DNA of 51,256 bases, taken from positions 1 to 51,256 of the forward strand of contig JBFLWF010000019.1 of assembly GCA_040758355.1 (NCBI GenBank). Direction: 5' to 3'. Source of the stretch: Nitrospirota bacterium. GTDB lineage: Bacteria; Nitrospirota; Thermodesulfovibrionia; Thermodesulfovibrionales; Dissulfurispiraceae. Both the position numbers and the translations under genes were made by a program. The notes under the pieces are model-generated. The model had not been told where the DNA came from and searched no databases. It saw nothing but the letters and a program-made list of their open reading frames with translations. Below are positions 1-16,695 of the stretch, one piece after another. The first letter of the stretch is position 1. Each line of letters begins with the position of its first letter.

Positions 1-126
1 TTTACAACCGACAGAGGAGACAGGCAAAGCTGGGGTATCTATCCCCTGTTGCTTATGAGAAAAAGTTTTATCAAACGAGGATTGCAGCATGAGTGAATTG
101 GTATCCACTATTGACATCCGACCTCA
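1..126 (+). mobile_element. Right end of an IS3-family insertion sequence (transposase C-terminus 3..92, right inverted repeat about 101..126 ending in CA)
   Basis: Frame from nt 3 reads YNRQRRQAKLGYLSPVAYEKKFYQTRIAA*, the typical IS3 OrfB tail (YNxxRxxxxLGYxSP). It is followed by GTATCCACTATTGACATCCGACCTCA. Confidence 0.85.
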
Positions 127-243
127 TATAAGCTTGTTGTTACCCTTAAACTCGCTCCTCAGGATATCGACAAAAGCGAAGATGAAAGGGATAAACCCAA
201 ACAAGAACAACATTATAAACAGTTCGTAAATCCCAATACCCAT
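124..243 (-). pseudogene. Small PLDc_N-like membrane protein truncated by the IS3 insertion
   Basis: AGGAGG RBS, then MGIGIYELFIMLFLFGFIPFIFAFVDILRSEFKGNNKLI. The expected W and second helix are replaced by the IS terminal TGA. Confidence 0.7.
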
Positions 244-261
244 AAAACCTCCTAAAGATTT

Positions 262-3200
262 TTATTTCACTATTACCAATGGGAAATCCATGCCCCTTGA
301 GTCAACAACAGGGAATTGCGCTTCCTGTTTGTATTTTTTTGTTATGTCAGGCAGTCGTTCTTCAACATATCCCATGAGCTTCCTTACAGTAACGGTCTCT
401 GTGCCTCCGGATGCCTTACCTTTCAGTCCTTCAAGAAGGATATATGTGAATACCCCATGACCGAGTTCCTTTACCTCTGCTGCAAACTGGTCTTTTGTTG
501 ATGCTGCTACTATATGCACACCCGTTGCCCTTGATAATTGCGAGAGTGCCTTCCTGTCTTCAAAGCCCCGGAATGCTATCAATACCGCTCCTGATTTGCA
601 TGAGTCAATGAGTAGGAGTATCTTTTGTGCCTTGATGTTTTTTATAAGTCCTGATAGTTCATCAGATGAGATGCCTTTTGTTTTTACATCCTCCTCCCTT
701 TCAGGGTAGGTGAGTTCATGCGGGATAAAGTACCACTTATCGCTGATGTTCTCTCCATGTCCCGCAAGATAAATCAGTACTGCATCCTGCGGATGGGTGG
801 CCTGAAGCCGATTGAGTTTTGAGACTATATTCCCCTTTGTTGCCTGTTCATTGTAGATTTCAATAATCTCGACTTTTTTGAATAACCCTTTGCCTTTCTG
901 TCTGAAAAAGCCGGTTATGCCTTTTGCGTCAGGCTCTGCATAATTGAGATTCAATGCAGGGTTCTTATATTTATTTATGCCGACTGCAAGGACATAAAGG
1001 GATACATCCTTTGACGGAGCTGTGAGTTTGACTATCAATTCATAAGGGTTTGACTCTATCCTGTCTTTGCTGAATGCAGTTGCTCTGAATGTGTTCGCGC
1101 CATCCACAAGGGTAACGATATATGTCTTTACGGCCTCGTTACCTTTTGGAACTATCTTTACGGCCCTCTGGTCTTCTCCAATTGCCTTGCCATTATGGTA
1201 TAGCCTTATCTCATCAATACCTCCGCCTGTATCCTTCGCAGAGACTGTGATTGTTACTGTGTCTGTGCTGAATGTTGCGTTCGGCTCGGGAGAGATGATC
1301 TTTACGTCAGGAGGCGTTAAAATGCCTTTTCTTATATCTGCAACTGCCTCAATCTTTTTGCCCTGAAGCACGGAGGCGACATAGACAGGATTGAAGAACT
1401 TCTCATAAAAGTTGTCTATTGAATAGACATTGTTGCCAACTCTTACATTTAGATGTTTCGCTCCATTCGGTGAGGCATTGAAATACCCTTCCGGCGTGAT
1501 GACTATCCATTCGCCGTCAGTGAAGCTGATGAATTGCGCGATTTCCTTTCCGGTGGAGATATCCCATAAACGTGCTGTTCCGTCACGACTTCCAGAAAGA
1601 ACAGATTTCCCATCCGGAGAGAACGCCACTGTCTTGATCCAATTGATATGTCCCTTGAATGTTTTTATCTCTCTGCCGGTATTCATTTCCCACAGTTTTA
1701 TGTCCCCACCCCAATCACCGGATGCCATATATTGGCCATCACCTGATATGTTTACTGCATCAATAGGGCTGGTATGGCCGTAAAAGGTTCTTATTTCCTT
1801 TCCTGTTGCCGTCTCCCATAGTTTTAAAGTATTATCTGCGCTTCCTGACAGTATATGACTTCCATCAGCGGTAAAAAGAATCGAATTAACGAAGTGGGAA
1901 TGTCCGGAAAAAGTCCTTATGGCCTTTCCCGTAGAAACATTCCACAGAGTGAAAATAGGCTCCTCGCCTATCGAATTCCTGCCCGCCACATATCTTCCAT
2001 CAGGAGAGAAAGCTGCTGCATCCATGACAAATTTAGACGGCGTTTCGAGTGTGGAAATTTCCCGTTTATTCTTGATATCGATTATTTTATATGTAACACT
2101 TCCATCCTGATGCTCTTGTCCTACTGCATACCTCCCGTCAGGAGAAAATGTCATGAAAACCGGCATATCTTTATCTTTCAAAACATCATAGCCTGTCCTT
2201 ATGATCGCACCGCCTTTTTTGCCATCCACAATGCTGATTATGCCTCCGCGCGAAAAATCTCTTTCAATCTCAAAAAAACAATTGTTATATGATTTCCAAA
2301 TTTTTTTCCTATCATGTAAGGAGCCGACAAAGCGGTCGAACTCATGCAAAGAAGAAGCGACGACATTGATCTTTTCATTGCCAGATGAAAAATATGCGTT
2401 GCCTGGCCCTTCAACATTCCCTCCGAATTTCGTAAGCTTTACTATGGAATAACCATATATTTTTGCTGCAGCTTCACTGGTGTGATATACGCCACCGTCT
2501 ATTGCAGTAGAGGTATCCCACATTGCTATTGCATGACTATAGGAAAAAGCCACATGTCTTCCATCAGGAGAAAATATCACAGCCCATGGATAGATATGAT
2601 CGTCTTTGAGAGTTGTAATTACCTGACTCGTTGAAACGTCCCATAATTCCATTTCATTCAATCCAGAGACGACCAATCTCTTTCCGTCCAGAGGAAATGC
2701 TATTGAAAATCTTTCGTATCGTTGGGGATTTGTAAAGGTTTTTATCTTTTTACCACTTTTTATATGCCACATTACAATAGTCTTGTCTTCGCTCCCTGAC
2801 GCAACATATTCACCGTTGGGAGAAACAGCTACAGAGTGAACAGTTTTTGAATGACCTGCAAACCTCCGCATCTCTTTGCCCGTCTTTATATCCAATTGAA
2901 TAACTGCGTTGTCGGTCCCACTTCCTAAAAGAACATATTTCCCATCCGGCGAAAGCGCCATATCGCTGATTCGTTCTGTATGAACCGGAATTATCTTATT
3001 AAGCTTTCCGGTTTTTATATCCCAGAGATTAATTATAGACTTTATTTTTCTATAGGACGCCTCTCTCCTGTGAAAATAAATCTCTGCGGCAACGATCAAC
3101 GATTTGCCGTTCGGAGAGAAAGCAATCGCAATAGCGCTGCTGGTTAAGAACTCATCTTTTTCAAGCTTTTCAGAAATTGCGATAGGAAACTTTTTCAATT

Positions 3201-3534
3201 CTTTGCCTGTGAAAATATCCCAAAGCCGAATAAATCCCTCCGCTTCTGCGGAAGCTAAAAATTTTCCATCAGGTGAAAATTTCACTGAATTATGTCCGAC
3301 AATAGGCTGGTCCAGCTTGAGTGTTCGTATCTCCCTTCCTGTGTCTATCTCCCATATCCTGACGCTCTTATCCGGGCTCCCAGATGCAAGATATTTCCCA
3401 TCAGGGGAAAAGACAATAGCCGCGACATTGTCCGAATGCCCCATTTGCACGAAAATCTCGGGCTTGTCGGAGGCAGAGACATTATTTGAAACAACGATAG
3501 AGAGTAAAATCGCTAAAACCAATCTGTGTATCAT
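262..3534 (-). CDS. Exported WD40-repeat, Ig-like and caspase (peptidase C14) domain protein
   Basis: N-terminal signal peptide, many GH...WD repeats, C-terminal LAGHG and IDSCKSG catalytic dyad. Confidence 0.9.
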   Translation of the reverse strand: MIHRLVLAILLSIVVSNNVSASDKPEIFVQMGHSDNVAAIVFSPDGKYLASGSPDKSVRIWEIDTGREIRTLKLDQPIVGHNSVKFSPDGKFLASAEAEGFIRLWDIFTGKELKKFPIAISEKLEKDEFLTSSAIAIAFSPNGKSLIVAAEIYFHRREASYRKIKSIINLWDIKTGKLNKIIPVHTERISDMALSPDGKYVLLGSGTDNAVIQLDIKTGKEMRRFAGHSKTVHSVAVSPNGEYVASGSEDKTIVMWHIKSGKKIKTFTNPQRYERFSIAFPLDGKRLVVSGLNEMELWDVSTSQVITTLKDDHIYPWAVIFSPDGRHVAFSYSHAIAMWDTSTAIDGGVYHTSEAAAKIYGYSIVKLTKFGGNVEGPGNAYFSSGNEKINVVASSLHEFDRFVGSLHDRKKIWKSYNNCFFEIERDFSRGGIISIVDGKKGGAIIRTGYDVLKDKDMPVFMTFSPDGRYAVGQEHQDGSVTYKIIDIKNKREISTLETPSKFVMDAAAFSPDGRYVAGRNSIGEEPIFTLWNVSTGKAIRTFSGHSHFVNSILFTADGSHILSGSADNTLKLWETATGKEIRTFYGHTSPIDAVNISGDGQYMASGDWGGDIKLWEMNTGREIKTFKGHINWIKTVAFSPDGKSVLSGSRDGTARLWDISTGKEIAQFISFTDGEWIVITPEGYFNASPNGAKHLNVRVGNNVYSIDNFYEKFFNPVYVASVLQGKKIEAVADIRKGILTPPDVKIISPEPNATFSTDTVTITVSAKDTGGGIDEIRLYHNGKAIGEDQRAVKIVPKGNEAVKTYIVTLVDGANTFRATAFSKDRIESNPYELIVKLTAPSKDVSLYVLAVGINKYKNPALNLNYAEPDAKGITGFFRQKGKGLFKKVEIIEIYNEQATKGNIVSKLNRLQATHPQDAVLIYLAGHGENISDKWYFIPHELTYPEREEDVKTKGISSDELSGLIKNIKAQKILLLIDSCKSGAVLIAFRGFEDRKALSQLSRATGVHIVAASTKDQFAAEVKELGHGVFTYILLEGLKGKASGGTETVTVRKLMGYVEERLPDITKKYKQEAQFPVVDSRGMDFPLVIVK

Positions 3535-3644
3535 TTTGCACCTCTGGTTATTGCTTTAGACTTGTAAGCCTTTATATGTTCGCTGGTTGCGAAATACGAG
3601 ATAACTGTGAGGCCCCTGCTTTCCTCCACACTTCTCACCGCACC

Positions 3645-5258
3645 TTACTCCAATCCTGTAATCCTCAAGTCCTTCGGATGTTCCACCCTGAATTTTATTT
3701 TCAGAGTTTTCTTCTCATTGGGCTTAAGCCTTAAGTCCCATGATATTATTCCGTCGTCGGAAATCTTTGCGTCCTCTTTTTTTGGCGATTCGAGAGCAAT
3801 CCTTATCTGCTCGTTTCTTGAAACAGGGAAATTATCGCTGATATTGATGCCGATCTCTTTATCTTTGGCGCTGACAATGTCAATCGCATATTCATAGCCT
3901 ATCTGAGTATCTTTAGAAAACACGCCCGAATATTCGGTAAATTTTTTAATAAGCTTTTTCTCTATCTTAATACCCTCATCGATTCCAAGCGACAAACTCA
4001 TGTCGTCATCAGGAAGTATCTGCTTATCAACTGATGTTGTATTCACAAACCGCTCATCTAAAAATATACTCATCTGCCCGGATAAGATTGGAAACGGAAG
4101 CGGATTTTTAAGGCCTGCCCTTAAATACGCATACCGAGAGATATTCGGCACTGCATAATAGCTTAATTTTGCCTCTTTCGTTGAAGATGCGATTAATATC
4201 CTGTGCGACTGGTTGTCTGACGGTATATTGACCTTGCCCGGAATTATAAAGCTGAATGATGTCGCCTCTGCCTTTATCTTCGGCTCTTCGAATCGCTGCT
4301 CCAGAGCAGCCTCTGACGCCTTCTCCTTGCTCATCATGAAATCCGCATCCTCGATAGCCTTCTTGTATTTATAAACCACAGGTCTCGGCTTGTAAATATC
4401 CACATACCATGCGGAAAGCTCGGGCGGAGGCCCGTAAGAAGGTCTCGCCGTAGAAATCTCGATATTCGCATTCTTCCAGTCCTCTCCGGTAGACTGGGTT
4501 ATGCTTGCAAAGCAAGCAATATCGACCCTTCCTGTAGCAGAATCAGCCCTTACATCATACTGCGGAGACCAGCCTGCCTTTGCAACAATGTAGGAAAGCC
4601 CCAGATTAATCTCCTTGTCCGCATCCGAAAGCAGATTGATTACGATGGTTTTGCTTTCATCCCTTGATGAGCTTAGGTTTTTAAGCTCATTTTCCAGCGC
4701 CCTCTTTTCTTCATGGAGCTTCTTTATTTTATTTTCGAGTTTTGCGACTCTCTCATAGTTTATTGACAACGACTTCTCGATAAACTTAGCGTGGCCTTCA
4801 ACCTCGGCTTGTGTAACCTTCTGGTTTTGAGGGAATGGAACAGTCTTCTTTAAAAATTCAGTCGAACTGTTTATGGCAGAGATTTCGTTTGAGTTTGTGT
4901 TTATAAGCTCGTTAATGCTCTCAAGCCTCGACTGGAGCCTCTGTATCTTATCCCGCATTGTCCTCTGGAGATAAGTCTTTTCAACCCTGACATCGGATAT
5001 CCTGACAGCAGCCTTTTCCTTAATATTCACCTGAACCGATTCGTCCGTTAAATTTACAGTCAATCCGGAAATCCTTATAATATTTTTACCTTTCTTAACC
5101 GCAATACCCGCCTCTTTCTTTATCATTGCGCTGTCAGGATAAAGGACAATGCTCTGGATTTTCGGGACACTCTCTATCTCTGCAGGAGATGCCCATACAT
5201 TACTTAAAAACACAAAAGAAAAAATCAGAATAGCGGCTAAGAAAATATTTCTGTTCAT
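3645..5258 (-). CDS. DUF4140/DUF4139 (MuiA-like) exported protein
   Basis: Signal peptide, N-terminal coiled coil, W-x-P-x-YDVR and QSTGEDW motifs, LSLGID, C-terminal WDLRLKP. Confidence 0.85.
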   Translation of the reverse strand: MNRNIFLAAILIFSFVFLSNVWASPAEIESVPKIQSIVLYPDSAMIKKEAGIAVKKGKNIIRISGLTVNLTDESVQVNIKEKAAVRISDVRVEKTYLQRTMRDKIQRLQSRLESINELINTNSNEISAINSSTEFLKKTVPFPQNQKVTQAEVEGHAKFIEKSLSINYERVAKLENKIKKLHEEKRALENELKNLSSSRDESKTIVINLLSDADKEINLGLSYIVAKAGWSPQYDVRADSATGRVDIACFASITQSTGEDWKNANIEISTARPSYGPPPELSAWYVDIYKPRPVVYKYKKAIEDADFMMSKEKASEAALEQRFEEPKIKAEATSFSFIIPGKVNIPSDNQSHRILIASSTKEAKLSYYAVPNISRYAYLRAGLKNPLPFPILSGQMSIFLDERFVNTTSVDKQILPDDDMSLSLGIDEGIKIEKKLIKKFTEYSGVFSKDTQIGYEYAIDIVSAKDKEIGINISDNFPVSRNEQIRIALESPKKEDAKISDDGIISWDLRLKPNEKKTLKIKFRVEHPKDLRITGLE

Positions 5259-5362
5259 CGCAACTTCCTCCTTTGATATCTCTCGCTTTTATTAAACATT
5301 AAAACACAATAAATATAGGGTCAAGGTAAAATTCACAGTTTTACGATACAAGAGCCCTGTCC

Positions 5363-5860
5363 TCAATCCACCGACTCCCACGCCTTCTTCTCAAAAACAT
5401 AATATTTTCTGCCGTAGGGCGGAATTGCTTCATACATGAGCGCATGGCTGTCCTGTCGGGCAAAGTACCGGAAAGCGCTTCCCGTCAATGAATATTTTGC
5501 GCTTGGTACTTTTGACAGAAATTCCGGAACGAGTTCCGAAAGCTTCTCCGGATAGCGCCCGCTTTTTGTTTTGAACTGTTCGCAGGCAGCTATAATATCT
5601 TTCGCCCTTCTCTCTGCAATCATGTTATTAAAAATATTGGCTCCGATAATGAGCACAACCATAAGTGCATATATGCCTGCCTTAGACACCAGCAGTTTAA
5701 CTCTCTCCCTGTCCTTTCCGGCCTTAAACAGCTTTACAAGCAGCGCTGGAACGCCGAGTATAATAGTGAATAACGCAATCGTGAACTGATTGAGGACAAA
5801 GGCATCGGCAATGAAGAGCAAAAAAGCCGTGATTATGGTTTTACGGAGCAGAGGGTTCAC
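5363..5860 (-). CDS. Hypothetical membrane protein
   Basis: Three hydrophobic segments and a GRYPEKLSELVPEFL pseudopilin-like tail; co-oriented with its neighbours. Confidence 0.7.
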   Translation of the reverse strand: MNPLLRKTIITAFLLFIADAFVLNQFTIALFTIILGVPALLVKLFKAGKDRERVKLLVSKAGIYALMVVLIIGANIFNNMIAERRAKDIIAACEQFKTKSGRYPEKLSELVPEFLSKVPSAKYSLTGSAFRYFARQDSHALMYEAIPPYGRKYYVFEKKAWESVD

Positions 5861-5866
5861 TTTGCC

Positions 5867-8809
5867 TTACCTCTCCCCATGCAAAATAAAAGGCGCCCAA
5901 TAAAAGGGATTGTCATAGCCGTTTGCACGCAGGTAGTCTTTGGCAGCCTTGAGCGCGGTTATTTTGTCCTTTCCAGCCTTGAGCCCTTCAAAGAATTTGA
6001 CCATCATCTTATAGGTTGAATCATCCGCAACGCTCCAGAGGCTTACCAATACGCTGTCCGTGCCTGCATACATAAATGCACGGGACAGTCCGACCACGCC
6101 TTCGCCTGCAGACTGAATGCCGAGTCCTGTTTTGCATGCGGAGAGTCCCACAAGGTCTGCATTCAGGTTCATGCCAAATATCTCGCCTGCCGTCAGAAAG
6201 CCGTCTTCTTTATCATTGCCTATAAGGTTCAAGACTAATGCAGGCTGCTTGATATAAGGGATTTCATTGCCGAGTATCCCATGAGTGGAAAAAAGCAGAT
6301 ACCTTCTCGTTGATAAGTCTTCTGCCTTTACTTTTTCCTCTGATGAATTGGAACCGGTGAATATCATGGAGCTGCCGAACAGTCTGCCCACTTCCTTGAC
6401 CTCTTTTTCTGTGTTGGGCAGTCTCTGGAATTGGTAACCTGCCTCTTTTGTCGCCTTACTGTCTGTTATGTCCTGCGTTTGCTTTGCCACGATCTTAACC
6501 CCGCGGAGAGATGCGGTGCGCGTATCCTTTGTATCAAACACAGGGTCTCCAATGCCGAAGAATGCGGGATCTTTGAATCGTGTGATGTTTAAACCCCTCA
6601 TGAGAGAGAGCACTGAGGCGGCCTGATAGTAGCTTATCCGGTATTCGTCAATCGCATAAACCGGTTTTGATCCTTTGCCGGACTTATCGTCATGCCCTGA
6701 CATGAGCATCGCCTCAAATGGAAGCAGGCTCAGGGATTCATCAGGAATGATGACAAGATGCTCGCCTTTTTGAATTACAGAAAGTGCGGGTTTTAAAAGA
6801 AGGTCTGTCAGTTCTTCTGCAAGACTCAGGTTGAATCCTTTGGGGTCATTGCCTTCCTGAAAAGGCGAGCGGAACTTCTTGACCATTGCCTCAAGCTCTG
6901 CACGGGTCTTTTCTATCCTGAACCCCTTTATTACCTTGCCGTCTTTGATTACAAGCCCGATTGTGTATTGCTCTGTTACCTCATATTCAATGATGGTTTC
7001 GCCTTTTTTGAGGCTAAGCTGGTTTAGTTTGACAGGCTGGGGATATTTGATGGATGCATATTGAGGATATTCCCTTCTCAGGCGATCAATCAATTTATCC
7101 ATATTCTCTTTTAATGCAGGGTATTCCTGTTCAAGTTGTTTTAATAATTCGGGATTGTTCTTTTCAAAGGCTGTTTGCTGTTGCTTTTTATTGATCATTA
7201 TGCGGGTGATGCGGTCTTCTTCCTCTTTAGCAAGCGAAGCGGGAATCTTGTAGTTTGCCTTTGAGTGCCTGCTTGAGATAAGCTCCGCAAATATCCTGCC
7301 CCTTGTGTTTTCAGCCCAGTAGAATGCCTCATCAAAGCGGTTGAGCATAAAGGCGCACCTTACAGCGCCTTCATATGCCTCTATTCTCGGGAATCCAAAC
7401 TCTTTGCCTTCAAAGAAGTGCTCCCGCTCAGAAGGGGAAAGCCTGCCTCTCTGGTCTTCGAGAAAATCAATAGCCTTTTTATACCATTTATATGCTGTCT
7501 CGTATTCCTTCATCCCCTCATAAGAAATGCCGAGACCCATCCATTCAGGGATTATGACTCCCGCATTTTTTCTTTTTTCATCTTCTTCTCTGTTTCTATC
7601 AAACTGTTTAGCCGCCTCCTTGAAATCCTTTTTCTTTAGATAATACATTCCGAGTCTGATAGGGTGGTCTTGCTTTATGTAAATGTCAAATGCCTCTTTG
7701 TCCTTGTCCATAGCAAGATATGCATCTCCCATATTGCCTTCCAAATAACCATACGGAACCCCAATCTCTTTTTTTATAGCCAATGCCTTTTCATAATATT
7801 CAATTGCTTTTCTATAGTCCCCTAAATCGCTGTGTGCAAGCCCAAGTCTGTTGAGATGATTTCCCTTGCCCTCTTTATATCCTATTTCATCTGCAATGGC
7901 AAGTGCCTTTTCAAAGTAGTCGATTGCCTTTCTGTAGTCCCCTAACTGTCTGTATGCATTTCCAAGATTGCCGAGCAGATGTTCCTTCCCCCCTTTATCT
8001 CCTATCTCATCAGCAATGGCAAGTGCCTTTTCAAAGTAGTCGATTGCCTTTCTGTAGTCCCCTAATTTGCCGTATGCAATCCCAAGATGGCCGAGCCAAT
8101 TTCCCTTTCCCAGTTTATCTCCTATCTCATCAGCAATGGCAAGTGCCTTTTCATAGTAGGCTATCTCCTTTCTGTAGTCCACTAACTCTCCGTATGCATT
8201 TCCCAGATTGCCGAGCCGACGTCCCTTGTTTTGTTTATCCCCTATCTCTTCAGCAATGGCAAGTGCCTTTTCATAGTAGGCGATTGACTTTCTAAAGTCC
8301 CCTAAATAATGGTATACAAGCCCCAGATTGTTGAGTCTCGTTCCCTTGCCTTGTTTGTCTCCTGTCTCCTCAGCAATGGCCAGTGCCTTTTCATGGTAGT
8401 CGATTGCCTTTTTGTAGTCCCCCAAATTACTGTATGCAAGCCCCAGATTGCCGAGCCAACTTCCCTTGTTTTGTTTATCCCCCATCTCCTCAGCAATAGC
8501 CAATGCCTTTTCAAAGTAGGTGATTGACTTTCTGTAGTCCCCTAAAATGTTGTATGCAAGCCCCAGATTGCCGATAGCAGCGCCGATTGCCTTTTTTCGA
8601 CCAAGTTTTTGAAAGGTTGCAAGCGCAGCCTCCCATTTCTCAATAGCCCCTCGAAAATCCGAAATATTGTATAGTTTTTCTCCTTCGTTAAAAAGCGCAG
8701 CAGCCCTGCTAAATTCTTCCTCGTCTGATAAGGCGTAAGAGACAATGGGGGCAATAATCATTAAAAAAACAATCACGAAAAAAACAAAACGACAGCGTCT
8801 CATATCCAA
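5867..8809 (-). CDS. Exported TPR-repeat CHAT-domain protease
   Basis: Signal peptide, 40-aa TPR repeats, LVIIPD..L..LPFEA, STHG, LSAC, SLWSV, PFYWAPF. Confidence 0.92.
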   Translation of the reverse strand: MDMRRCRFVFFVIVFLMIIAPIVSYALSDEEEFSRAAALFNEGEKLYNISDFRGAIEKWEAALATFQKLGRKKAIGAAIGNLGLAYNILGDYRKSITYFEKALAIAEEMGDKQNKGSWLGNLGLAYSNLGDYKKAIDYHEKALAIAEETGDKQGKGTRLNNLGLVYHYLGDFRKSIAYYEKALAIAEEIGDKQNKGRRLGNLGNAYGELVDYRKEIAYYEKALAIADEIGDKLGKGNWLGHLGIAYGKLGDYRKAIDYFEKALAIADEIGDKGGKEHLLGNLGNAYRQLGDYRKAIDYFEKALAIADEIGYKEGKGNHLNRLGLAHSDLGDYRKAIEYYEKALAIKKEIGVPYGYLEGNMGDAYLAMDKDKEAFDIYIKQDHPIRLGMYYLKKKDFKEAAKQFDRNREEDEKRKNAGVIIPEWMGLGISYEGMKEYETAYKWYKKAIDFLEDQRGRLSPSEREHFFEGKEFGFPRIEAYEGAVRCAFMLNRFDEAFYWAENTRGRIFAELISSRHSKANYKIPASLAKEEEDRITRIMINKKQQQTAFEKNNPELLKQLEQEYPALKENMDKLIDRLRREYPQYASIKYPQPVKLNQLSLKKGETIIEYEVTEQYTIGLVIKDGKVIKGFRIEKTRAELEAMVKKFRSPFQEGNDPKGFNLSLAEELTDLLLKPALSVIQKGEHLVIIPDESLSLLPFEAMLMSGHDDKSGKGSKPVYAIDEYRISYYQAASVLSLMRGLNITRFKDPAFFGIGDPVFDTKDTRTASLRGVKIVAKQTQDITDSKATKEAGYQFQRLPNTEKEVKEVGRLFGSSMIFTGSNSSEEKVKAEDLSTRRYLLFSTHGILGNEIPYIKQPALVLNLIGNDKEDGFLTAGEIFGMNLNADLVGLSACKTGLGIQSAGEGVVGLSRAFMYAGTDSVLVSLWSVADDSTYKMMVKFFEGLKAGKDKITALKAAKDYLRANGYDNPFYWAPFILHGER
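7770..8575 (-). repeat. About 7 tandem 120-bp TPR-coding repeats with high nucleotide identity
   Basis: GC(A/C)A(G/A)TGCCTTTTC recurs every 120 nt (about 7779, 7899, 8019, 8139, 8259, 8379, 8499). Confidence 0.9.
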
Positions 8810-9018
8810 ACCTCCATTTTGAGATCTTTTTAAATCATAGGGCTGCTTACAATCCTCTTATTACTTTATGAAAAGAGTATCTGCAAACCAATATACAAAG
8901 AAGAGGTGTTACTGTCAAGGTAATTTTCACATCACAAAAATAAATACAAACTTTATGCTATAGGAAGCTTCCTTACGCGATATTCTTTTTCATCTATTGG
9001 TATAATCGAGTTTTCTTT

Positions 9019-11142
9019 TCACTTCGTCTTTGCCACATACACGCCGTCCCAGTCGAGATCGGGAGGGTTTTCGATAAACTCGGCGCATCTCTCGGCGAAT
9101 ACGCCGGCTGTCTTGTCGCCGTGTTCGGATTCGAGACTTTCGAATATCTGTTTTGCCTCTTTAAACTGCTGTTTTCTGTAAAGCGCCAGCGCCTCTTCAA
9201 ACTTCTTGGCAACTGCGCTGTCCATCGCTGCCGAGAGTTCATAAATAGTTACCGGCTTATCCTTTCCCTTAACCTTTATAAAATCCAGTTCCCTGAATCT
9301 CATTCCAACGGAGAATTGCTGCAAAAGGCCGAGAGACTTGAGCTTGTCGAGCGTAAATTCGGTAAAAATTATATGAGTCTTGTAAATCTTGTTCATGCCT
9401 TCAAGCCGAGAAGATAGGTTTACGGTATCGCCCATCGCCGTATAGTCGAACCTCACGTCCGTTCCCATATTGCCGACGATCACATCTCCGGTGTTTATGC
9501 CGATGCCGATATCCACTTCAGGCAGTCCGTTTGCCTTAAAATCCACATTAAGGTCTTTCAGTTTATCCATCATGACAAGTGCGCTCCTGCATGCCTGAAG
9601 GGGATGGTCTTCAACATCGAGAGGCGCGTTATATAAGGCCATTATGGCGTCGCCGATATATTTATCGAGAGTGCCTCTATGCTGCAAGACTATATCCGTC
9701 ATCGGCCCCAGATACTGATTAAGCAAATGCACAAGGGCTTCAGGAGTAAGTTTTTCAGAAATAGTAGTGAAGCCCCTTATATCCGAAAACAAAACCGTTA
9801 TATTCCTTTTCTCGCCCCCAAGTTTAAGCATATCCGGGTTTTTCATTATCTCCCCGACAAGGGCGGGAGACACATAACTCGTAAACGCCTTTTTGAGAAA
9901 CCTGCTCTGCTTCTCCTCTATGAGATTCCTGTATGCCTCTGAGCCGAAATAAGATAATGTGGTAGAAATCAACGGGAACAATACAGATGTGTTCAAAGGA
10001 TAAAATTTGAAGGTAAAATGGTTTGTAATGTAATACAGTCCGAGAGTTGTTAGGAAAAGTAAAAGTGCGAATAGTGTCCTCCTGACAAAACTTAGGGATG
10101 TGGTGAGTATGAGGGTAAAGACTATAATAAAAACAATGTCCAATGCTATTACCCTGCCGTCCCTTATTAAAAGTCTTTTCTGAAGGGCATTGGATACAAC
10201 TGTTGCATGCACTTCAACGCCTGGAAGCACCGGATCAACAGGTGTTGCACGCAGATCGGAGAGTCCGACCTCTGTTGCCCCGATAAAGATAAGGGAATCC
10301 TTCAGTTCACCGGGCTTAAGTCTTTTTTTGATAATATCCACTGCAGGTATTGCCCTGAATATACCCTGCTTGCCGTAATAATTAAGGGTAAGTCTTCCTG
10401 ATTCGTCGCATGGTATGCGATATTTTCCTATGAGGAGATTATCCACACCGTAATTGGCAATCTCAAGGACTATCTCGCTTCCCATGTAATGCCTCAATGC
10501 TGCAAGTGGCAAAGAAGGATAGACATAACCGTCATAAAGCATCAAAATATTAGCCGACCTTAAAATACCATCGCTGTCCGGAATGATGTTGAAATAACCA
10601 GAACTGCGCGCAGATTGTGCAATAACAGGTATATTCAGTTCAACAACCGGGTAACTGTGGACAGGCACTTCAGCGACATTGCCTGTTGTCTTAACAATCT
10701 TTATCCTCGCATCCTCAAGCAGCATGAGCGATTCTTTTGAAGGAGGCTCGCCCTCTGACCTGAAGAAATATCCGAGTATCGCATTTTTATTTTTTTGAAG
10801 TGCGTCTGATAATGCCTTATCTGATGTTGGATCGGATGGCTCTGAAAAGATGATATCAAAGGCAATAGTCTTTGCGCCGTAGAGATTAAGGTTTTCGATC
10901 AGTTGTGCTATTGTCTTTCTATCCCACGGCCATCTGCCGAGTTCATTGATGCTCTTTTCATCTATGGCGACGATAACAACCCGCTTGTCAGGCTCTATAT
11001 TTCCCCTTGTCCTGAACCTTACATCCTTGAGCTTAAGGTCAAGAGAACTGAAGAAGTCTGTCTTCTGTGCATATAAAACAACTGCGAGGACAACGGATGC
11101 AATGCCTATTGCCGTAAATATAAAAAATCTGTGCGCCTTCAT
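9019..11142 (-). CDS. CHASE2-domain membrane adenylate cyclase (class III)
   Basis: IDEKSI..LGRWPW and PGVEVHA CHASE2 motifs, three TM helices, FSDIRGFT, DKYIGDAIMA, GDTVNLSSRLE. Confidence 0.93.
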   Translation of the reverse strand: MKAHRFFIFTAIGIASVVLAVVLYAQKTDFFSSLDLKLKDVRFRTRGNIEPDKRVVIVAIDEKSINELGRWPWDRKTIAQLIENLNLYGAKTIAFDIIFSEPSDPTSDKALSDALQKNKNAILGYFFRSEGEPPSKESLMLLEDARIKIVKTTGNVAEVPVHSYPVVELNIPVIAQSARSSGYFNIIPDSDGILRSANILMLYDGYVYPSLPLAALRHYMGSEIVLEIANYGVDNLLIGKYRIPCDESGRLTLNYYGKQGIFRAIPAVDIIKKRLKPGELKDSLIFIGATEVGLSDLRATPVDPVLPGVEVHATVVSNALQKRLLIRDGRVIALDIVFIIVFTLILTTSLSFVRRTLFALLLFLTTLGLYYITNHFTFKFYPLNTSVLFPLISTTLSYFGSEAYRNLIEEKQSRFLKKAFTSYVSPALVGEIMKNPDMLKLGGEKRNITVLFSDIRGFTTISEKLTPEALVHLLNQYLGPMTDIVLQHRGTLDKYIGDAIMALYNAPLDVEDHPLQACRSALVMMDKLKDLNVDFKANGLPEVDIGIGINTGDVIVGNMGTDVRFDYTAMGDTVNLSSRLEGMNKIYKTHIIFTEFTLDKLKSLGLLQQFSVGMRFRELDFIKVKGKDKPVTIYELSAAMDSAVAKKFEEALALYRKQQFKEAKQIFESLESEHGDKTAGVFAERCAEFIENPPDLDWDGVYVAKTK

Positions 11143-14033
11143 TATTTCCTGACAGCCACAGGAAAATCGGGCACTGTATTGGGCTTTGTTGTTGTCGGGG
11201 TCTGTCTTCCCTTTGTCAGTTCCTTAACCCTCTCCGAAAGATACAGGTCGAGCATGTTTATGGTTATCTTCCCCTTGCCTGTGTAATCCGCTTTTCCGCT
11301 TATTCCTTCGACCAGCGCCTTGGTGAATGCTCCGTTGTTCCATACAGGGTCTTCGAGGGAGTATTGCTTGCCCGTGGATGATGCAAAGACAACAGCACCG
11401 TTTTCTGCACTGGCAAGCTCATTCACAATACCCGATATATCGGCCACTCCCCTCCTCGTGCCCATTATATTGCCAGAATGGCAGGTATCTACAAAGAGGA
11501 TTGTCTTTCCTGCCAGAGACGATAGTGTATTTTTAATATCCGAAAAGGCCACACCTGTTCTCTTCAACTTTTCAGTGTTTGCATTCACTGGCAGGAAGTA
11601 ATACACACCGCTCTGGTCATTCACACCATGTCCTGCCAAAAAGACCATTGCCACATCTTTGCTTGTTGTCTCTTTTGCAAGCCAGTCGAGTCCGTCCAGT
11701 ATCTCATCCTTTGATGCCTTTTCATCGGTAATGACTTTTACTACTACTTCCCTATACAATCCGTTTTTTTGCCTCTGCAGCGTACTTGCAAAATCCCTTG
11801 CATCCTTTGCAGCAAAAGCGAGGGCAAGGCTTTTATCTTCGTATTTACTGACACCGATGGCCAGGACATAGAGCTTTGGCTTGATGACAAACTCATCCCT
11901 TTTTGCCCCCTTCCACTTTACCCGTACGGTAGCAGGCTCGCTAACAGCAAACCTGTTCTCGGCGATAATGGAGATATCCGAATCCCTTTCCGGAACAGGG
12001 ACCCTTATCTCATCAACATCCCTTTCCTTACCTACTATCTTAACGCTGCGCTCCGTTGAAACCGGCCTCCCATCCACCAGCGCCTTCAAGCCTGTTACAG
12101 GTTCTCCTGACGGGGTGCGGATGCTGAATTTAACCGTAACTTCATGTGTGGAAACCTCTGTTCCGTCTACAGGACTGACAATAGTTACTATAGGAGGAAG
12201 CATTTTCTGGATAGTTATATCCTGTTTCCTTCTACCCGACTCTTCATTGGCAAGTCTGACAGCCTCATTCTCATCCATAGTCTCAAAGACCTTTGCAACA
12301 ACATCAGGTCGATAGTATGTGGATCTGAACCGGGAGATGGGGAAGGAATCAGAGGCAGCATCCTTTCCATTGTTTATGTGCCAGCCTATTATCTCATCTG
12401 CACCCGGTGATGCGTCATAATAACCTGACGGCGTCCATATAACCCATCTCTTTTTGTCATTATGGGGAAACAGTGCCAGAACTTCCTTTCCATCCCTCAG
12501 CCTGTACCATCTTATTGTTCCGTCTCCAAAGGCTCCGACTGCTAACTTTCCATCGCCAGATATGTTCACGCTCCATGCAATGCCTGGAGCCGGAACCTTC
12601 CATTTCACATTTCCATACCTGTCAAACAGGCGGAGATACCACTCTGCTCCCAGAAGGAACGTCTGATTGTCTGGAGAAATGGCAACACTGCGGGACATCT
12701 CATATTGATCAAGTTTTAATGCCGTGCCGTTTACCTTCGGATTATAGGTATTTTTCCAATCCGTAATAGTGAGACCTATTGCTGATGTTATAGGAGGATT
12801 TAAAATTTGCGATTTCAAAATGGAGCCCGAAGATTCCTGATTTAGTTCAAGAAGGCGGTCCGGCACGGAGAAGCGAGCAGGCGACCTTCCAAATACTTCA
12901 TAGCCAAACTGCACTGCAGATGCGTTATAAGATACAAGGAATCCTTCATGATTATCCCTGTGGTCTGCAATAGCAGGGCTTTTATATATTGCCCTTCTAT
13001 CGTATGCATCAAATACACCGAATGCAGGGTCATGGGAGCAAAATACAATGCCCCCGTATCTCAACGGAAGAATCTGCAGAATAGTGCTCTGAGTTGCAGA
13101 TAAATCAACGTACCTTCCCTTTCCTCCATCTGTCCATTTGCGGATGGGACGGTTGTTTAAGGCACTGCTCCAGTAAATCCCGCCCGCATAAAGGAACCTT
13201 CCATCCTGAGACCATGATACAGCTACCATATTGCCATTGGTGACTCCGCCGGAATCGGGCGAATAAAGATATGAAAGATCTCTACCCGATAAGACATCCA
13301 CCTTTGTTGAGTCATCGAGACCAACAGCTATTTTCGAACCATCGGGTGAAAAACTGATACCGTAAGGCTTGTTGCCGTTGGGCGCCCTCTTTTTTACAAT
13401 CAACCTGAAATTATTGTCATAGAGGCGGATATAACCATCCCACGATGTTGTTACGAGCTTGCCGTACATATCGAAATCAGCGCCGTAGCTGTCGCTGCCG
13501 TAATCCCTATCCTCCGCAGCAAGTGAATAGTCGGATGTACGGTAAACCCTTATGCCGTTATTGCCCCAAAGCCCGGCAACAATGTACATTCCGTCCTTAG
13601 AATAAGCGAGACTGAAAACAGTGGAAGACAGTCCGCTTATCCTTTTTATAAGTCTTCCGCTCTCACGGTCGAAGAAATAGATGGATGCATACATGTCATC
13701 CCAGTTCTGTCCTGTCCAGCCTGCACAGGCAATAGTCCTTCCGTCAGGGGACATTGCTATCGCAAATATCATTCCCTCATTCCCGTCACCTATGGGAGGC
13801 CTGATTATCTTTAAAAGCCTTCCTGTTGATAATTCCCACACGCGGACTGTCTTGTCGTTTGAGCCTGTAACAAGATAGCGATTCTCGGCATCTACGCCGA
13901 TCCTCTTTATGACAGAAGTATGCATGCCTGTCTCTATTTTCAGGATCGGCTCTCTCGGCGGCTCGCCTGCATAAACTCCATTCTTCAGAAAGAAAACAAA
14001 AAATATAATGGCTAAATAAAATACCCTTTTCAT
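11142..14033 (-). CDS. Exported WD40-repeat, Ig-like and caspase (C14) domain protein
   Basis: Signal peptide, WD repeats, LAGHG and VDTCHSG dyad. Confidence 0.9.
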   Translation of the reverse strand: MKRVFYLAIIFFVFFLKNGVYAGEPPREPILKIETGMHTSVIKRIGVDAENRYLVTGSNDKTVRVWELSTGRLLKIIRPPIGDGNEGMIFAIAMSPDGRTIACAGWTGQNWDDMYASIYFFDRESGRLIKRISGLSSTVFSLAYSKDGMYIVAGLWGNNGIRVYRTSDYSLAAEDRDYGSDSYGADFDMYGKLVTTSWDGYIRLYDNNFRLIVKKRAPNGNKPYGISFSPDGSKIAVGLDDSTKVDVLSGRDLSYLYSPDSGGVTNGNMVAVSWSQDGRFLYAGGIYWSSALNNRPIRKWTDGGKGRYVDLSATQSTILQILPLRYGGIVFCSHDPAFGVFDAYDRRAIYKSPAIADHRDNHEGFLVSYNASAVQFGYEVFGRSPARFSVPDRLLELNQESSGSILKSQILNPPITSAIGLTITDWKNTYNPKVNGTALKLDQYEMSRSVAISPDNQTFLLGAEWYLRLFDRYGNVKWKVPAPGIAWSVNISGDGKLAVGAFGDGTIRWYRLRDGKEVLALFPHNDKKRWVIWTPSGYYDASPGADEIIGWHINNGKDAASDSFPISRFRSTYYRPDVVAKVFETMDENEAVRLANEESGRRKQDITIQKMLPPIVTIVSPVDGTEVSTHEVTVKFSIRTPSGEPVTGLKALVDGRPVSTERSVKIVGKERDVDEIRVPVPERDSDISIIAENRFAVSEPATVRVKWKGAKRDEFVIKPKLYVLAIGVSKYEDKSLALAFAAKDARDFASTLQRQKNGLYREVVVKVITDEKASKDEILDGLDWLAKETTSKDVAMVFLAGHGVNDQSGVYYFLPVNANTEKLKRTGVAFSDIKNTLSSLAGKTILFVDTCHSGNIMGTRRGVADISGIVNELASAENGAVVFASSTGKQYSLEDPVWNNGAFTKALVEGISGKADYTGKGKITINMLDLYLSERVKELTKGRQTPTTTKPNTVPDFPVAVRK

Positions 14034-14926
14034 TTCTTATGCCCCCCTGTTTTCAGTGTCGTTCCACCCTCAAAAAACTCGGATGCCGAAGATCCCTTGT
14101 TTCCGAATTTTTCTTTCAGCTTAACACCCCTTGTCCTGTCTCCGATATCGGCATGTCTCGTCTTTACCTGATAAACTCCACCCATGTCCTCAACATTTAT
14201 ATCTCCGAGCACAGACGTGCTCGAATACACGAAAACGTTTTCTTCACCAAAAGGAGGGCTGACCTCCAGTTCAAACCTGTCATTGCCTGAGGGTATTTCA
14301 TAGATTGCGCCTCCACTGAAGTAATTGTCCTTCCTGTAAGGATTCGGCAGCAGTTGCAGCAATTCTCCTTTAACATCCTTGTACAGGACAATGGCATAAA
14401 ACGGCTTGTTGCCTTTGATGTATATCTTTATCTTATCTCCGCTCGCATACTCCTTTTTATCTGTCCAGACCTGAACCTGCAAAGGCGCAGATGGGTCATC
14501 GGTTGTCTGTTTGCTTTTTGAAAGCATATCCATTGCCTTTTCATCGGGCATCACCTCTGCCTTTATCTTTATTTTAAAGCAATCTCCGAGGGACTGGTCT
14601 TTATACCATCCTTTCTCCATCTCCTGAATAATCCTCACTGTCGCATTGGCATAGGCCGATACCAGGTCCTTTTCAAGTTCAAGGTCTTTAATATGGGTCT
14701 CGCTCTTTATATAAGTCGATACCTGCTCTATCGCCTTTCTCTTTGCATCGGCCATTGCAGCCTGCTCTGTCTGCTTTCTCGATTTATCCTCGCCCATGCA
14801 AGCATAGCCTTCGGATTCGGTGATGGTGGATTGCGCTGAATGGGCAGTATTAACAAAAAACGCAAAAATAATAAAGAGCGATAAAATATAAATTTTCATT
14901 CTCCCCCCTTCATAACTAAAAATCAT
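14030..14926 (-). CDS. Exported DUF4384-domain protein (likely start MKIYIL, 9 codons in)
   Basis: Signal peptide, VWTDKKEY..GD.I.I, LLPN, FELEVSPPFGEE. Confidence 0.8.
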   Translation of the reverse strand: MIFSYEGGRMKIYILSLFIIFAFFVNTAHSAQSTITESEGYACMGEDKSRKQTEQAAMADAKRKAIEQVSTYIKSETHIKDLELEKDLVSAYANATVRIIQEMEKGWYKDQSLGDCFKIKIKAEVMPDEKAMDMLSKSKQTTDDPSAPLQVQVWTDKKEYASGDKIKIYIKGNKPFYAIVLYKDVKGELLQLLPNPYRKDNYFSGGAIYEIPSGNDRFELEVSPPFGEENVFVYSSTSVLGDINVEDMGGVYQVKTRHADIGDRTRGVKLKEKFGNKGSSASEFFEGGTTLKTGGHKK

Positions 14927-15978
14927 TTATCTAAAATATTCAGTATCGTCTCCACGCTCCTTATATGTTTGCCTGCCGGATATTCCTTCTTATACTGCAG
15001 GAGTTTCTCCTTTGCCTGCTCTTTGAGGCCAAGTTCATATAAGGTCATACCTGCGAGATAAAGTGCTGTCTCTCTTTGTGGAACTATTGGATATGTTTCT
15101 ATCACTAATAGATACTCTGCCAGCGCAGCCTCTGGATTTCTTAAAAATCTCGAATATACTGCCCCTCTCTCCAGTCTCGCATCGCTCCTGATCTCAGGTA
15201 AATTTGTTAGGTCAAGGGCTATCTGGAATACATAGAGTGCATCTTCATACTTCCCTGCATCTGCGAGGTAATGTCCGTAGTTTATATTCCACCGCGCAAT
15301 AATATTGGGCAAATTGCCTGAAATCTCCCAGTCCTTTGGAGGCTCTGCTGCTGTTATAGCTTCAAAATCCTTTTTAGCAGTATAAAGCGGGGTGTCAGGC
15401 TCGACTTTAACAGGGTCTGTCGGCGTATAGCTCCTTGTATTCTGTACCATTGTATCGACACTTAGGGGTTTCGAAGGAGTTGTATCGCCTGAAATCTCCA
15501 CCTGTCCTTCGTTTCCGAAGAACACATTGGCAAATCCATGCGTCATCATCATGAACTCGGTGCCTTTAATTCCAGCAACTGCTGTGGGACTCTTTATCTT
15601 ATAATTTACCTTCTCTCCTGCAAGCCGCGTAACAGATGCCCTCAGTTTGCCCTGCGCAACATTGAATATCCCATCTTTTTTTTCTTTGCTCACAATGAAT
15701 TCTGTTATCTCCATCTCCGTATTATTTGCCAGAGTAAGTCTGCTGTTGTCAGACAACAATAAAACAGTCCAACCATCAGCACCGGTCTTTATCCAGTTGC
15801 CTTTTTCCAATGCCATACCCTTTTCAGCCTTTTGATAGATGGCACTGCTTTTTTCTTTGTATAAGACACTCCCGCTCATTTCCGATATCCTGCCGACAGG
15901 AGCACCCTCGCCCTCGCTGTATGAATAAAATATAAAAAAAGCCAGGAATATAACGATAATAAAAACAATCCGTTTCAT
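14923..15978 (-). CDS. Exported FecR-domain and TPR protein
   Basis: IKTGADG, L.DNS.L.L..NT, SPTAVAGIKGTEF; C-terminal TPRs. Confidence 0.85.
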   Translation of the reverse strand: MKRIVFIIVIFLAFFIFYSYSEGEGAPVGRISEMSGSVLYKEKSSAIYQKAEKGMALEKGNWIKTGADGWTVLLLSDNSRLTLANNTEMEITEFIVSKEKKDGIFNVAQGKLRASVTRLAGEKVNYKIKSPTAVAGIKGTEFMMMTHGFANVFFGNEGQVEISGDTTPSKPLSVDTMVQNTRSYTPTDPVKVEPDTPLYTAKKDFEAITAAEPPKDWEISGNLPNIIARWNINYGHYLADAGKYEDALYVFQIALDLTNLPEIRSDARLERGAVYSRFLRNPEAALAEYLLVIETYPIVPQRETALYLAGMTLYELGLKEQAKEKLLQYKKEYPAGKHIRSVETILNILDK

Positions 15979-16204: not shown

Positions 16205-16414
16205 TTATACTGCCACATATTCCGCAAAAGATTGTGATTCAGGGATTGGCAGATTATCTTCTAATAGCCCTTCTATATGCATTTTAATAGCCTCATGCAT
16301 ATTTTTTTCCGCTTCTTCACGAGTTGCGCCAGTTGCCACACAACCCGGCAAATCCGGCGAATACGCAGAATAATTATTTTCTGCTTTTTCTATAACAATA
16401 AGGAAACGATGCAT
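16205..16414 (-). CDS. hicB: HicB-family antitoxin
   Basis: YSAYSPDLPGCVATGATREEA motif; lies directly after hicA. Confidence 0.9.
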   Translation of the reverse strand: MHRFLIVIEKAENNYSAYSPDLPGCVATGATREEAEKNMHEAIKMHIEGLLEDNLPIPESQSFAEYVAV

Positions 16415-16415
16415 T

Positions 16416-16610
16416 TTACTTTACCTCCTTTAATTTTGCCTGTTTTAGAATACTATTAAGAGTACCTTGAGCCAAGTCATCACCGAGATGATCGGCAATG
16501 GTTACCCTTCCCGGTTTTGTTGGATGTTTATATTGCCTATGGCTGCCTCTTGTAACAACCAAATACCATCCATCAGCCTCTATAAGTTTAATAATATCAC
16601 GGACTTTCAT
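16416..16610 (-). CDS. hicA: HicA-family mRNA interferase toxin
   Basis: DGW..V.TRGSHRQYKHP.KPGRVTI, GTL.SILKQA. Confidence 0.92.
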   Translation of the reverse strand: MKVRDIIKLIEADGWYLVVTRGSHRQYKHPTKPGRVTIADHLGDDLAQGTLNSILKQAKLKEVK

Positions 16611-16623
16611 ATGTTAGTTTAAA

Positions 16624-16695
16624 AGCCGGGAAAGGGATTCGAACCCTCGACCTGCTGATTACGAATCAGCTGCACTACCACTGTGCTATCCCGGC
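16624..16695 (-). tRNA. tRNA-Thr (anticodon CGT), CCA not encoded
   Basis: Cloverleaf GCCGGGA...TCCCGGC, anticodon arm GCTGA-TTCGTAA-TCAGC, GGTTCGAATCC T-loop. Confidence 0.95.

Follow-up and report, generated by a model that had tools for sequence, protein, structure and literature searches.

Organization of the locus and copies of the motif

The window analysed here is the whole 51,256-nt stretch of contig JBFLWF010000019.1 from a Nitrospirota bacterium, and coordinates refer to it unless another locus is named. Eight co-oriented genes are located at 262-15978, and all features of this operon lie on the minus strand. Four of the encoded proteins share a six-residue motif beginning with arginine; as a candidate cut site it is precise enough to be tested, and it could serve a protease relay beyond the cytoplasm. 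The gene order is as follows: a predicted exported FecR-TPR protein (14923-15978), a predicted exported two-domain protein ending in DUF4384 (14030-14926), caspase 2 with WD40, immunoglobulin-like (Ig) and Peptidase_C14 domains (11142-14033; 963 aa, His802, Cys851), a CHASE2-transmembrane-adenylate/guanylate cyclase as candidate output (9019-11142), a TPR-CHAT protease (5867-8809; 980 aa, hydrophobic N-terminus, His843, Cys892), a membrane protein of 165 aa matching no Pfam family (5363-5860), a predicted exported DUF4140/DUF4139 protein (3645-5258) and caspase 1 with WD40, Big_7 Ig and Peptidase_C14 domains (262-3534; 1090 aa, hydrophobic N-terminus, His926, Cys979). Neither the FecR-TPR protein nor the DUF4140/DUF4139 protein contains the motif.

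PF00656 was matched above the cut-off in both caspases. Their catalytic His-Cys dyad is kept and is invariant across 134 sequences. Asp869 and Asp977 are also invariant in the caspase alignment; they are acidic in both caspases and occupy positions which we take to be those of the S1 pocket for Arg/Lys specificity. The CHAT domain follows the TPRs (PF12770, E 2.8e-57) and has the THG and SAC of a His-Cys dyad; five of six close CHAT relatives belong to Nitrospirota. Within the class, 74 of 301 genomes gave a match to the DUF4384 protein, weak ones counted. DUF4384 loci with a length of 10 kb or more numbered 61 and contained a caspase or CHAT in 48 cases, a CHASE2 cyclase in 21 and FecR in 18. 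A hydrophobic stretch was found by hydropathy at the N-terminus of all eight operon proteins.

An earlier note on this DNA had reported the motif as R-[GAS]-V-K-[IL]-[VK] in four unrelated exported proteins, and all four copies indeed translate as claimed. Copy 1 begins at R790 of caspase 1 (1150-1167), where the Ig domain has a variable loop; copy 2 at R769 of TPR-CHAT (6488-6505), in the variable insert flanked by GDPVF (aa 754) and LP.T..E (aa 797); copy 3 at R662 of caspase 2 (12033-12050); and copy 4 at R266 of the DUF4384 protein (14114-14131), at a helix end, opening the loop before the last strand. Because copies 1 and 3 occupy one position of paralogous Ig domains, the copies represent three independent contexts and not four. 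A strict pattern, fitted after the fact to the four copies, had four matches in 2488 genome open reading frames (ORFs), all within the operon (5091 of 832,371 residues), compared with a mean of 1.35 and a maximum of 4 in 20 shuffles of these ORFs. A relaxed pattern occurred at background level genome-wide (37 seen, 36.25 expected), by which a genome-wide enrichment was rejected. Since the strict pattern is post hoc and the relaxed form is not enriched, the real support comes from cross-family ranking in other loci. A second, weaker stretch in the CHAT protein, R-G-L-N-I-T at R738 (6581-6598; 10.8 bits), lies 31 residues before copy 2, and a similar stretch was found again in loci L058 and L059.

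Conservation, relocation and structural context

For the comparison, 1262 ORFs were called in 125 related loci, redundancy was removed at 90% and the DUF4384 set was restricted to more than 40% identity; as these loci are related to one another, the counts overstate independence. The motif was conserved in orthologues, with Arg at the aligned site in all 95 DUF4384 proteins and all 38 Ig-caspases; of the 28 CHATs, 4 were gapped there and 22 of the other 24 had Arg. Arg is mostly followed by G/A/S, then a hydrophobic residue, then K/Q/T/A and then I/L/V, which gives the consensus R-[GAS]-[VIL]-[KQTA]-[IVL]-[VKT]. Residues before Arg are family-specific; conservation lies at and after Arg, with alternating hydrophobics. 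Database homologues also carried the motif (118/119 DUF4384 proteins, 59/65 close CHATs), and the Arg of the DUF4384 site was invariant across 120 aligned sequences.

In a leave-family-out test, the profile of one family served to rank all positions in proteins of the other families. The profile trained on DUF4384 ranked the site first in 37 of 38 Ig-caspases (median 963 aa) and 20 of 28 CHATs, that trained on Ig-caspases did so in 90 of 95 DUF4384 proteins and 20 of 28 CHATs, and that trained on CHATs in 80 of 95 DUF4384 proteins and 36 of 38 Ig-caspases. A pooled profile, whose use on its own three training classes is partly circular, reached 12 bits in 25/28 CHATs, 73/95 DUF4384 proteins, 32/38 Ig-caspases, 3/20 other caspases and 15/866 remaining proteins of the loci (9 expected). 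Within the protease and DUF4384 classes the frequency is far above background. All six Arg codons are in use at the DUF4384 site, and this free synonymous codon use shows that the motif is selected at the protein level and led us to reject a DNA-level element or repeat. Together with the cross-family ranking, it supports the claim of the earlier note that the recurrence reflects selection.

Three CHAT positions, the region behind the signal peptides of several small caspases and the post-Cys linkers of others carry the motif; it thus relocates, and exported clan CD protease loci share it as a portable, short linear motif. Three CHATs without the insert have it upstream of the domain instead, and in two CHATs it comes after the catalytic His. 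A profile match behind a hydrophobic N-terminus was listed for 16 proteins. Eight of these belong to the caspase type: Pfam or clear catalytic motifs confirmed six, and BLAST class assigned two (in L089 and L161). In these eight, Arg lies about 1-6 residues past the likely signal-peptidase site, and one (L114) reads R-R-V. The other eight are unrelated proteins with mostly low scores. A Bacteroidota caspase (L209) has the full motif in its post-Cys linker, and in L054 the linker copy has Lys in place of Arg. Most proteins contain one copy.

A predicted exported transglutaminase-like protein found in several loci (L067 10990-12621, L070 10834-12477) has R-[AG]-[VIM]-K-I-L in five of eight members, with Ile or Gln replacing Arg in the remaining ones, and by sequence is a possible further carrier. 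An OmpA-like domain was present in 59 of the 120 CHAT homologues listed (P0384-P0444), within the CHAT region where inspected; this inserted domain is preceded by I-I-R-G-L and often also by T-R-[SG] (26/32 parsed).

Other stretches of the operon turned out not to be copies. The earlier note had also pointed to RG after both catalytic Cys residues. FRGF and TRRGV are present there, in caspase 1 (562-573), within a p20/p10-type linker after a stretch with a predicted local distance difference test score (pLDDT) below 50, and in caspase 2 (11445-11459). R and G are each kept in 85% of 144 sequences. Their pattern is R-G-x-x-[DE] and was ranked first in 0/38 by each family profile, so that identity with the motif was rejected; the caspase 1 stretch is a candidate self-processing site with a distinct motif. 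The weaker match claimed for CHASE2, DARIKIV (10693-10713), does exist. It is out of register with the motif, and CHASE2 was rejected as a carrier, since 0/22 CHASE2-cyclase proteins reached 12 bits; [SAT]-R-[IV]-K-I, without a small residue after Arg, is kept in 11/21 aligned proteins. FecR (0/18) and DUF4139 (0/7) proteins were also rejected at this threshold. The FecR domain contains a G-[IV]-[KR]-G-T stretch (15559-15570) kept in 14/18 relatives, whose Gly-Thr is presumably the self-cleavage site of FecR-type proteins. Directly upstream of the operon are a HicA/HicB toxin-antitoxin pair (16205-16695, minus strand) and a tRNA-Thr gene, and the region may be an island inserted at the tRNA. 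A short small-membrane-protein-like ORF with an early TGA stop near the contig end follows caspase 1 (120-242, minus strand).

The motif was placed in accessible loops and not in core strands by the models of DUF4384 and the Ig-caspase, as the earlier note had required of an exposed site, and for CHAT by the alignment, in which its copy falls into an insert of variable length. Three outcomes that the earlier note had named as refuting, lack of conservation, background frequency and burial in core strands, were thus not observed, and its interpretation is supported in part. In the DUF4384 model (mean pLDDT 89), Arg ends a helix and opens the coil before the last strand; pLDDT is 85 at the motif (residues 231-240) and below 50 a few residues on. 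In the model of Ig-caspase 1 (mean pLDDT 89.5) the motif is coil with one bridge (residues 51-60, pLDDT about 64), in a loop that holds a much longer insert in some relatives. The caspase catalytic domain is nearest to MALT1 (Z 20.1, root-mean-square deviation 2.7, 195 aligned) and metacaspases, and the DUF4384 beta-sandwich to macroglobulin (MG) domains of complement C4 and alpha-2-macroglobulin (Z 9.6-9.8). Neither the CHAT nor the DUF4384 protein matched a PDB entry by sequence, Foldseek with DUF4384 gave no match at E 0.001, an Atlas search returned DUF4384 clusters only, and WD40 matches swamped a profile search. A complex prediction with two Ig-caspase 1 copies and DUF4384 scored 0.01.

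Possible function of the motif

We tentatively favour, at somewhat under even odds, the reading that the portable motif is a cut site whose new N-terminal strand docks on the next protease and activates it. Taken separately, cleavage with Arg at P1 and the small residue at P1' is quite probable, and docking of the new N-terminus, once cleavage is granted, is the likelier outcome. In this scheme the predicted Arg-specific C14 caspases of the operon would read the motif and cut after Arg, and the freed N-terminus would dock as an alternating hydrophobic strand on a shared site, most simply the caspase/CHAT catalytic domain, thereby switching it on. One activated protease could then cleave itself as well as DUF4384 and the remaining proteases, in a self-amplifying relay in the cell envelope, with the CHASE2 cyclase as a possible output suggested by gene order. 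The new N-terminus is the likely working part because a cut would release no folded domain and conservation lies after the bond; behind a signal peptide a cut would release only 1-6 residues, and the motif's position just there fits the idea of a neo-N-terminus. Parallels are the L2' strand of the animal caspase loop bundle, which docks on the catalytic domain, and the N-terminal insertion of trypsin-type proteases.

A scissile bond explains best the invariant Arg and small residue in open loops beside predicted Arg-cutting enzymes. Characterised non-animal C14 proteases cut after Arg/Lys, and caspase processing occurs in the linker after the catalytic Cys (PMC5756287). MALT1 is Arg-specific (PMC6207715), with one of its cut sites being Arg-Ser. 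For LcCaspase, the cuts in its partner fall at putative conserved R-G sites, of which one is at a helix end (10.1101/2025.11.14.688446); cleavage at R-G by bacterial caspases has thus been published. PsCaspase requires Arg at P1, has a slight preference for small neighbouring residues and cleaves EF-Tu after R59 (10.1101/2024.10.24.620036); EF-Tu-, EF-G- and LepA-like GTPases of this genome have R-G-I-T-I at that position. The specificity of CHAT proteases differs from family to family.

Several observations weigh against cleavage followed by docking. Beyond the clade only R-small(-hydrophobic) persists: among 144 distant Ig-caspases, Arg is kept in 72% and the relaxed pattern in 80, and Bacteroidota DUF4384 loops read R-[GS]-[TVI]-[DE], the hydrophobic prime-side pattern being lost. 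A second caspase and DUF4384 locus of this genome (G000:C65 135-4687) is without the motif. Copies within a locus did not co-vary (145 matches, 145.6 expected, p 0.56; 75 pairs from 55 loci), and a locus-specific recognition code was rejected because they were no more alike than copies across loci. The specificity-pocket Cys of metacaspases, which a review ties to activity, is absent from both caspases, although the dyad is present. Export of the operon proteins is predicted from crude hydropathy and from the OmpA-like inserts of the CHAT homologues. Finally, since characterised bacterial caspases depend mostly on P1 (10.1101/2024.10.24.620036), the strong prime-side pattern may serve docking without any cut.

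For P1' alone, likeness of copies within a locus had a p of 0.049, uncorrected among 18 tests. Both partners were present in 16 of 30 Bacteroidota DUF4384 loci; R-small occurred in the DUF4384 loop as well as the caspase linker in 11 of these, in the caspase only in two and in neither in three. One Bacteroidota locus has R-G-F-K-I in both partners. Alphaproteobacterial plasmid loci showed, by eye, R-G-hydrophobic in CHAT inserts and in some Ig or C-terminal loops, and two more distant DUF4384 proteins were without the motif. The second TPR-CHAT of this genome (G000:C35 14654-17986), with a Crp-like gene and an ABC-type permease cluster nearby, has R-G-I-T-I in its insert.

It is possible, if rather doubtful, that the loops are cut or bound in active sites with the prime side serving substrate recognition only, as maturation nicks or as bait or pseudosubstrate loops for mutual inhibition, with DUF4384 as a small inhibitor or decoy and the new N-terminus inert. 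The location of the CHAT copy in an insert adjoining the LP.T..E segment agrees with this, and so does the structural likeness of DUF4384 to macroglobulin domains; a common fold, however, shows no function, and in macroglobulins the bait region is a different part from the MG domain. In Rhizobium etli, a distant locus has a serpin with R-S-I in its reactive loop beside a trypsin-caspase-DUF4384 fusion, but the serpin P1 is ambiguous by one residue. Some of the Csx30 proteins that CHAT proteases have as substrates also contain DUF4384 (10.1101/2022.08.17.504292). Motifs 1-6 residues behind caspase signal peptides are explained less well by recognition alone. The Rhizobium etli locus (L170 13885-21687) encodes a caspase, the fusion, the serpin and a Ser/Thr kinase, and the fusion contains R-V-I-G-G at the trypsin start and R-S-L-R-I-V in DUF4384.

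We regard it as unlikely that the motif is never cut and acts as a docking strand, with Arg as anchor and beta-augmentation, for one common partner surface in the envelope. The conservation at and after Arg with alternating hydrophobics, the family-specific residues before it, the usually single copy per protein and the fairly ordered DUF4384 copy would all suit such a strand. On the other hand, the invariant Arg followed by G/A/S agrees with published clan CD cut sites, and the motif lies beside predicted Arg-cutting enzymes and in the processing linker of some.

It is very improbable that the motif imitates a switch loop of translation GTPases, R-G-I-T-I, as a decoy sensing foreign Arg-specific or EF-Tu-cutting proteases in the envelope. 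PsCaspase cuts EF-Tu at this loop, the R-G-I-T-I loops of EF-Tu-, EF-G-, LepA- and TypA-like GTPases (G000:C37, C26, C1 and C7, assigned by N-termini) are among the top genome profile matches, and the second CHAT of the genome has the same residues. PsCaspase, however, is promiscuous, most copies have V-K-I and not I-T-I, and the compartments differ. Chance or composition, through residues frequent in beta-rich proteins or a repeat at the DNA level, is hardly credible despite the background frequency of the relaxed pattern, given the class enrichment and relocation, and was rejected for the three domain classes by leave-family-out ranking and free synonymous codon use.

If a new N-terminus indeed activates the proteases, this would be a tethered-ligand mechanism, which we did not find described for bacterial caspases in the accessible literature, and would give DUF4384 a function. 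A bolder extension, which we hold to be speculative, is that many bacteria have an extracytoplasmic caspase/CHAT relay, a counterpart of complement and clotting, built on one portable tethered ligand, an Arg site whose cutting exposes an N-terminal beta-strand able to activate the next clan CD protease in trans, with the six-residue motif as entry, DUF4384 as macroglobulin-like amplifier or brake and the CHASE2 cyclase carrying the output to the cytoplasm. Exported WD40-caspases, TPR-CHATs and DUF4384 proteins exist in very large numbers; with an E limit of 0.001, the Ig-caspase query alone matched 38,595 cluster representatives. For these proteins no substrate, trigger or activation step was found described in the literature searched. 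Likewise, no description of the shared exported motif or of the operon was found in the accessible papers; any cut-site logos given in the supplements of preprints could affect how new the motif is. The motif pinpoints the residues to mutate and the N-termini to seek, and so turns an open question into a simple experiment.

Comparison with known systems

LcCaspase and its alpha/beta-hydrolase zymogen (10.1101/2025.11.14.688446) resemble the operon in combining a bacterial caspase-like protease with a partner encoded alongside and conserved putative R-G sites, and refolding of the partner after the cut has been proposed. There, one toxic effector is cut, whereas the operon motif is found in the proteases themselves and in the non-enzymatic DUF4384 protein, has a longer prime side, is mobile and occurs in proteins with export signals. 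The SAVED-CHAT to PCaspase system (10.1101/2023.06.23.546230) and the type IV Thoeris PsCaspase (10.1101/2024.10.24.620036) share with the operon CHAT and C14 proteases and, in the scheme proposed here, a CHAT-to-caspase cascade and P1 Arg, but their trigger is a nucleotide messenger that comes from CRISPR or TIR proteins. SAVED or TIR domains were found neither in the eight operon proteins nor in 14 proteins scanned (up to 25.5 kb; for two repeat proteins, among the 25 families listed), and the accessible text of both preprints describes no shared motif. In that of PMC7935541 and the SAVED-CHAT preprint no cut-site sequence was found.

Craspase, with the TPR-CHAT protein Csx29 and Csx30 (10.1101/2022.08.17.504292), is similar in its TPR-CHAT, in the DUF4384 assignment of some Csx30 C-terminal domains and, if the operon loops are cut, in a cut within an exposed hairpin. 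It differs in P1 Met and in requiring Cas7-11 and target RNA, while the conserved residue of the operon is Arg; neither Cas7-11 nor a Csx30 N-domain was seen among the eight operon genes. DdvA of Myxococcus xanthus (PMC11506125) is a periplasmic TPR-CHAT with a His-Cys dyad, for which self-cleavage is proposed only. It is a transmembrane anti-sigma factor, whereas the operon CHAT is a separate, predicted exported protein accompanied by caspases, DUF4384 and a CHASE2 cyclase, has an N-terminal hydrophobic stretch only, and no sigma factor was present among the proteins scanned.

MALT1, metacaspases and orthocaspases (PMC5756287, PMC9463181) are the nearest solved folds, and their P1 Arg/Lys and autoprocessing after the catalytic domain are like those proposed for the operon. 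Their consensus sites cover mainly P4-P1', in contrast to the operon motif, conserved from P1 to P5', and no exported relay is described for them in the accessible text of these papers. In Sinorhizobium meliloti CyaD1/CyaD2/CyaK (PMC5498481), a CHASE2 adenylate cyclase is likewise linked to extracytoplasmic FecR-domain and TPR proteins; the input is a plant signal, and proteases are not mentioned in the accessible text. On the features tested, the operon lies outside the Craspase, SAVED-CHAT/Thoeris and DdvA types, yet it would work like the CHAT-to-caspase cascade and the caspase-hydrolase module.

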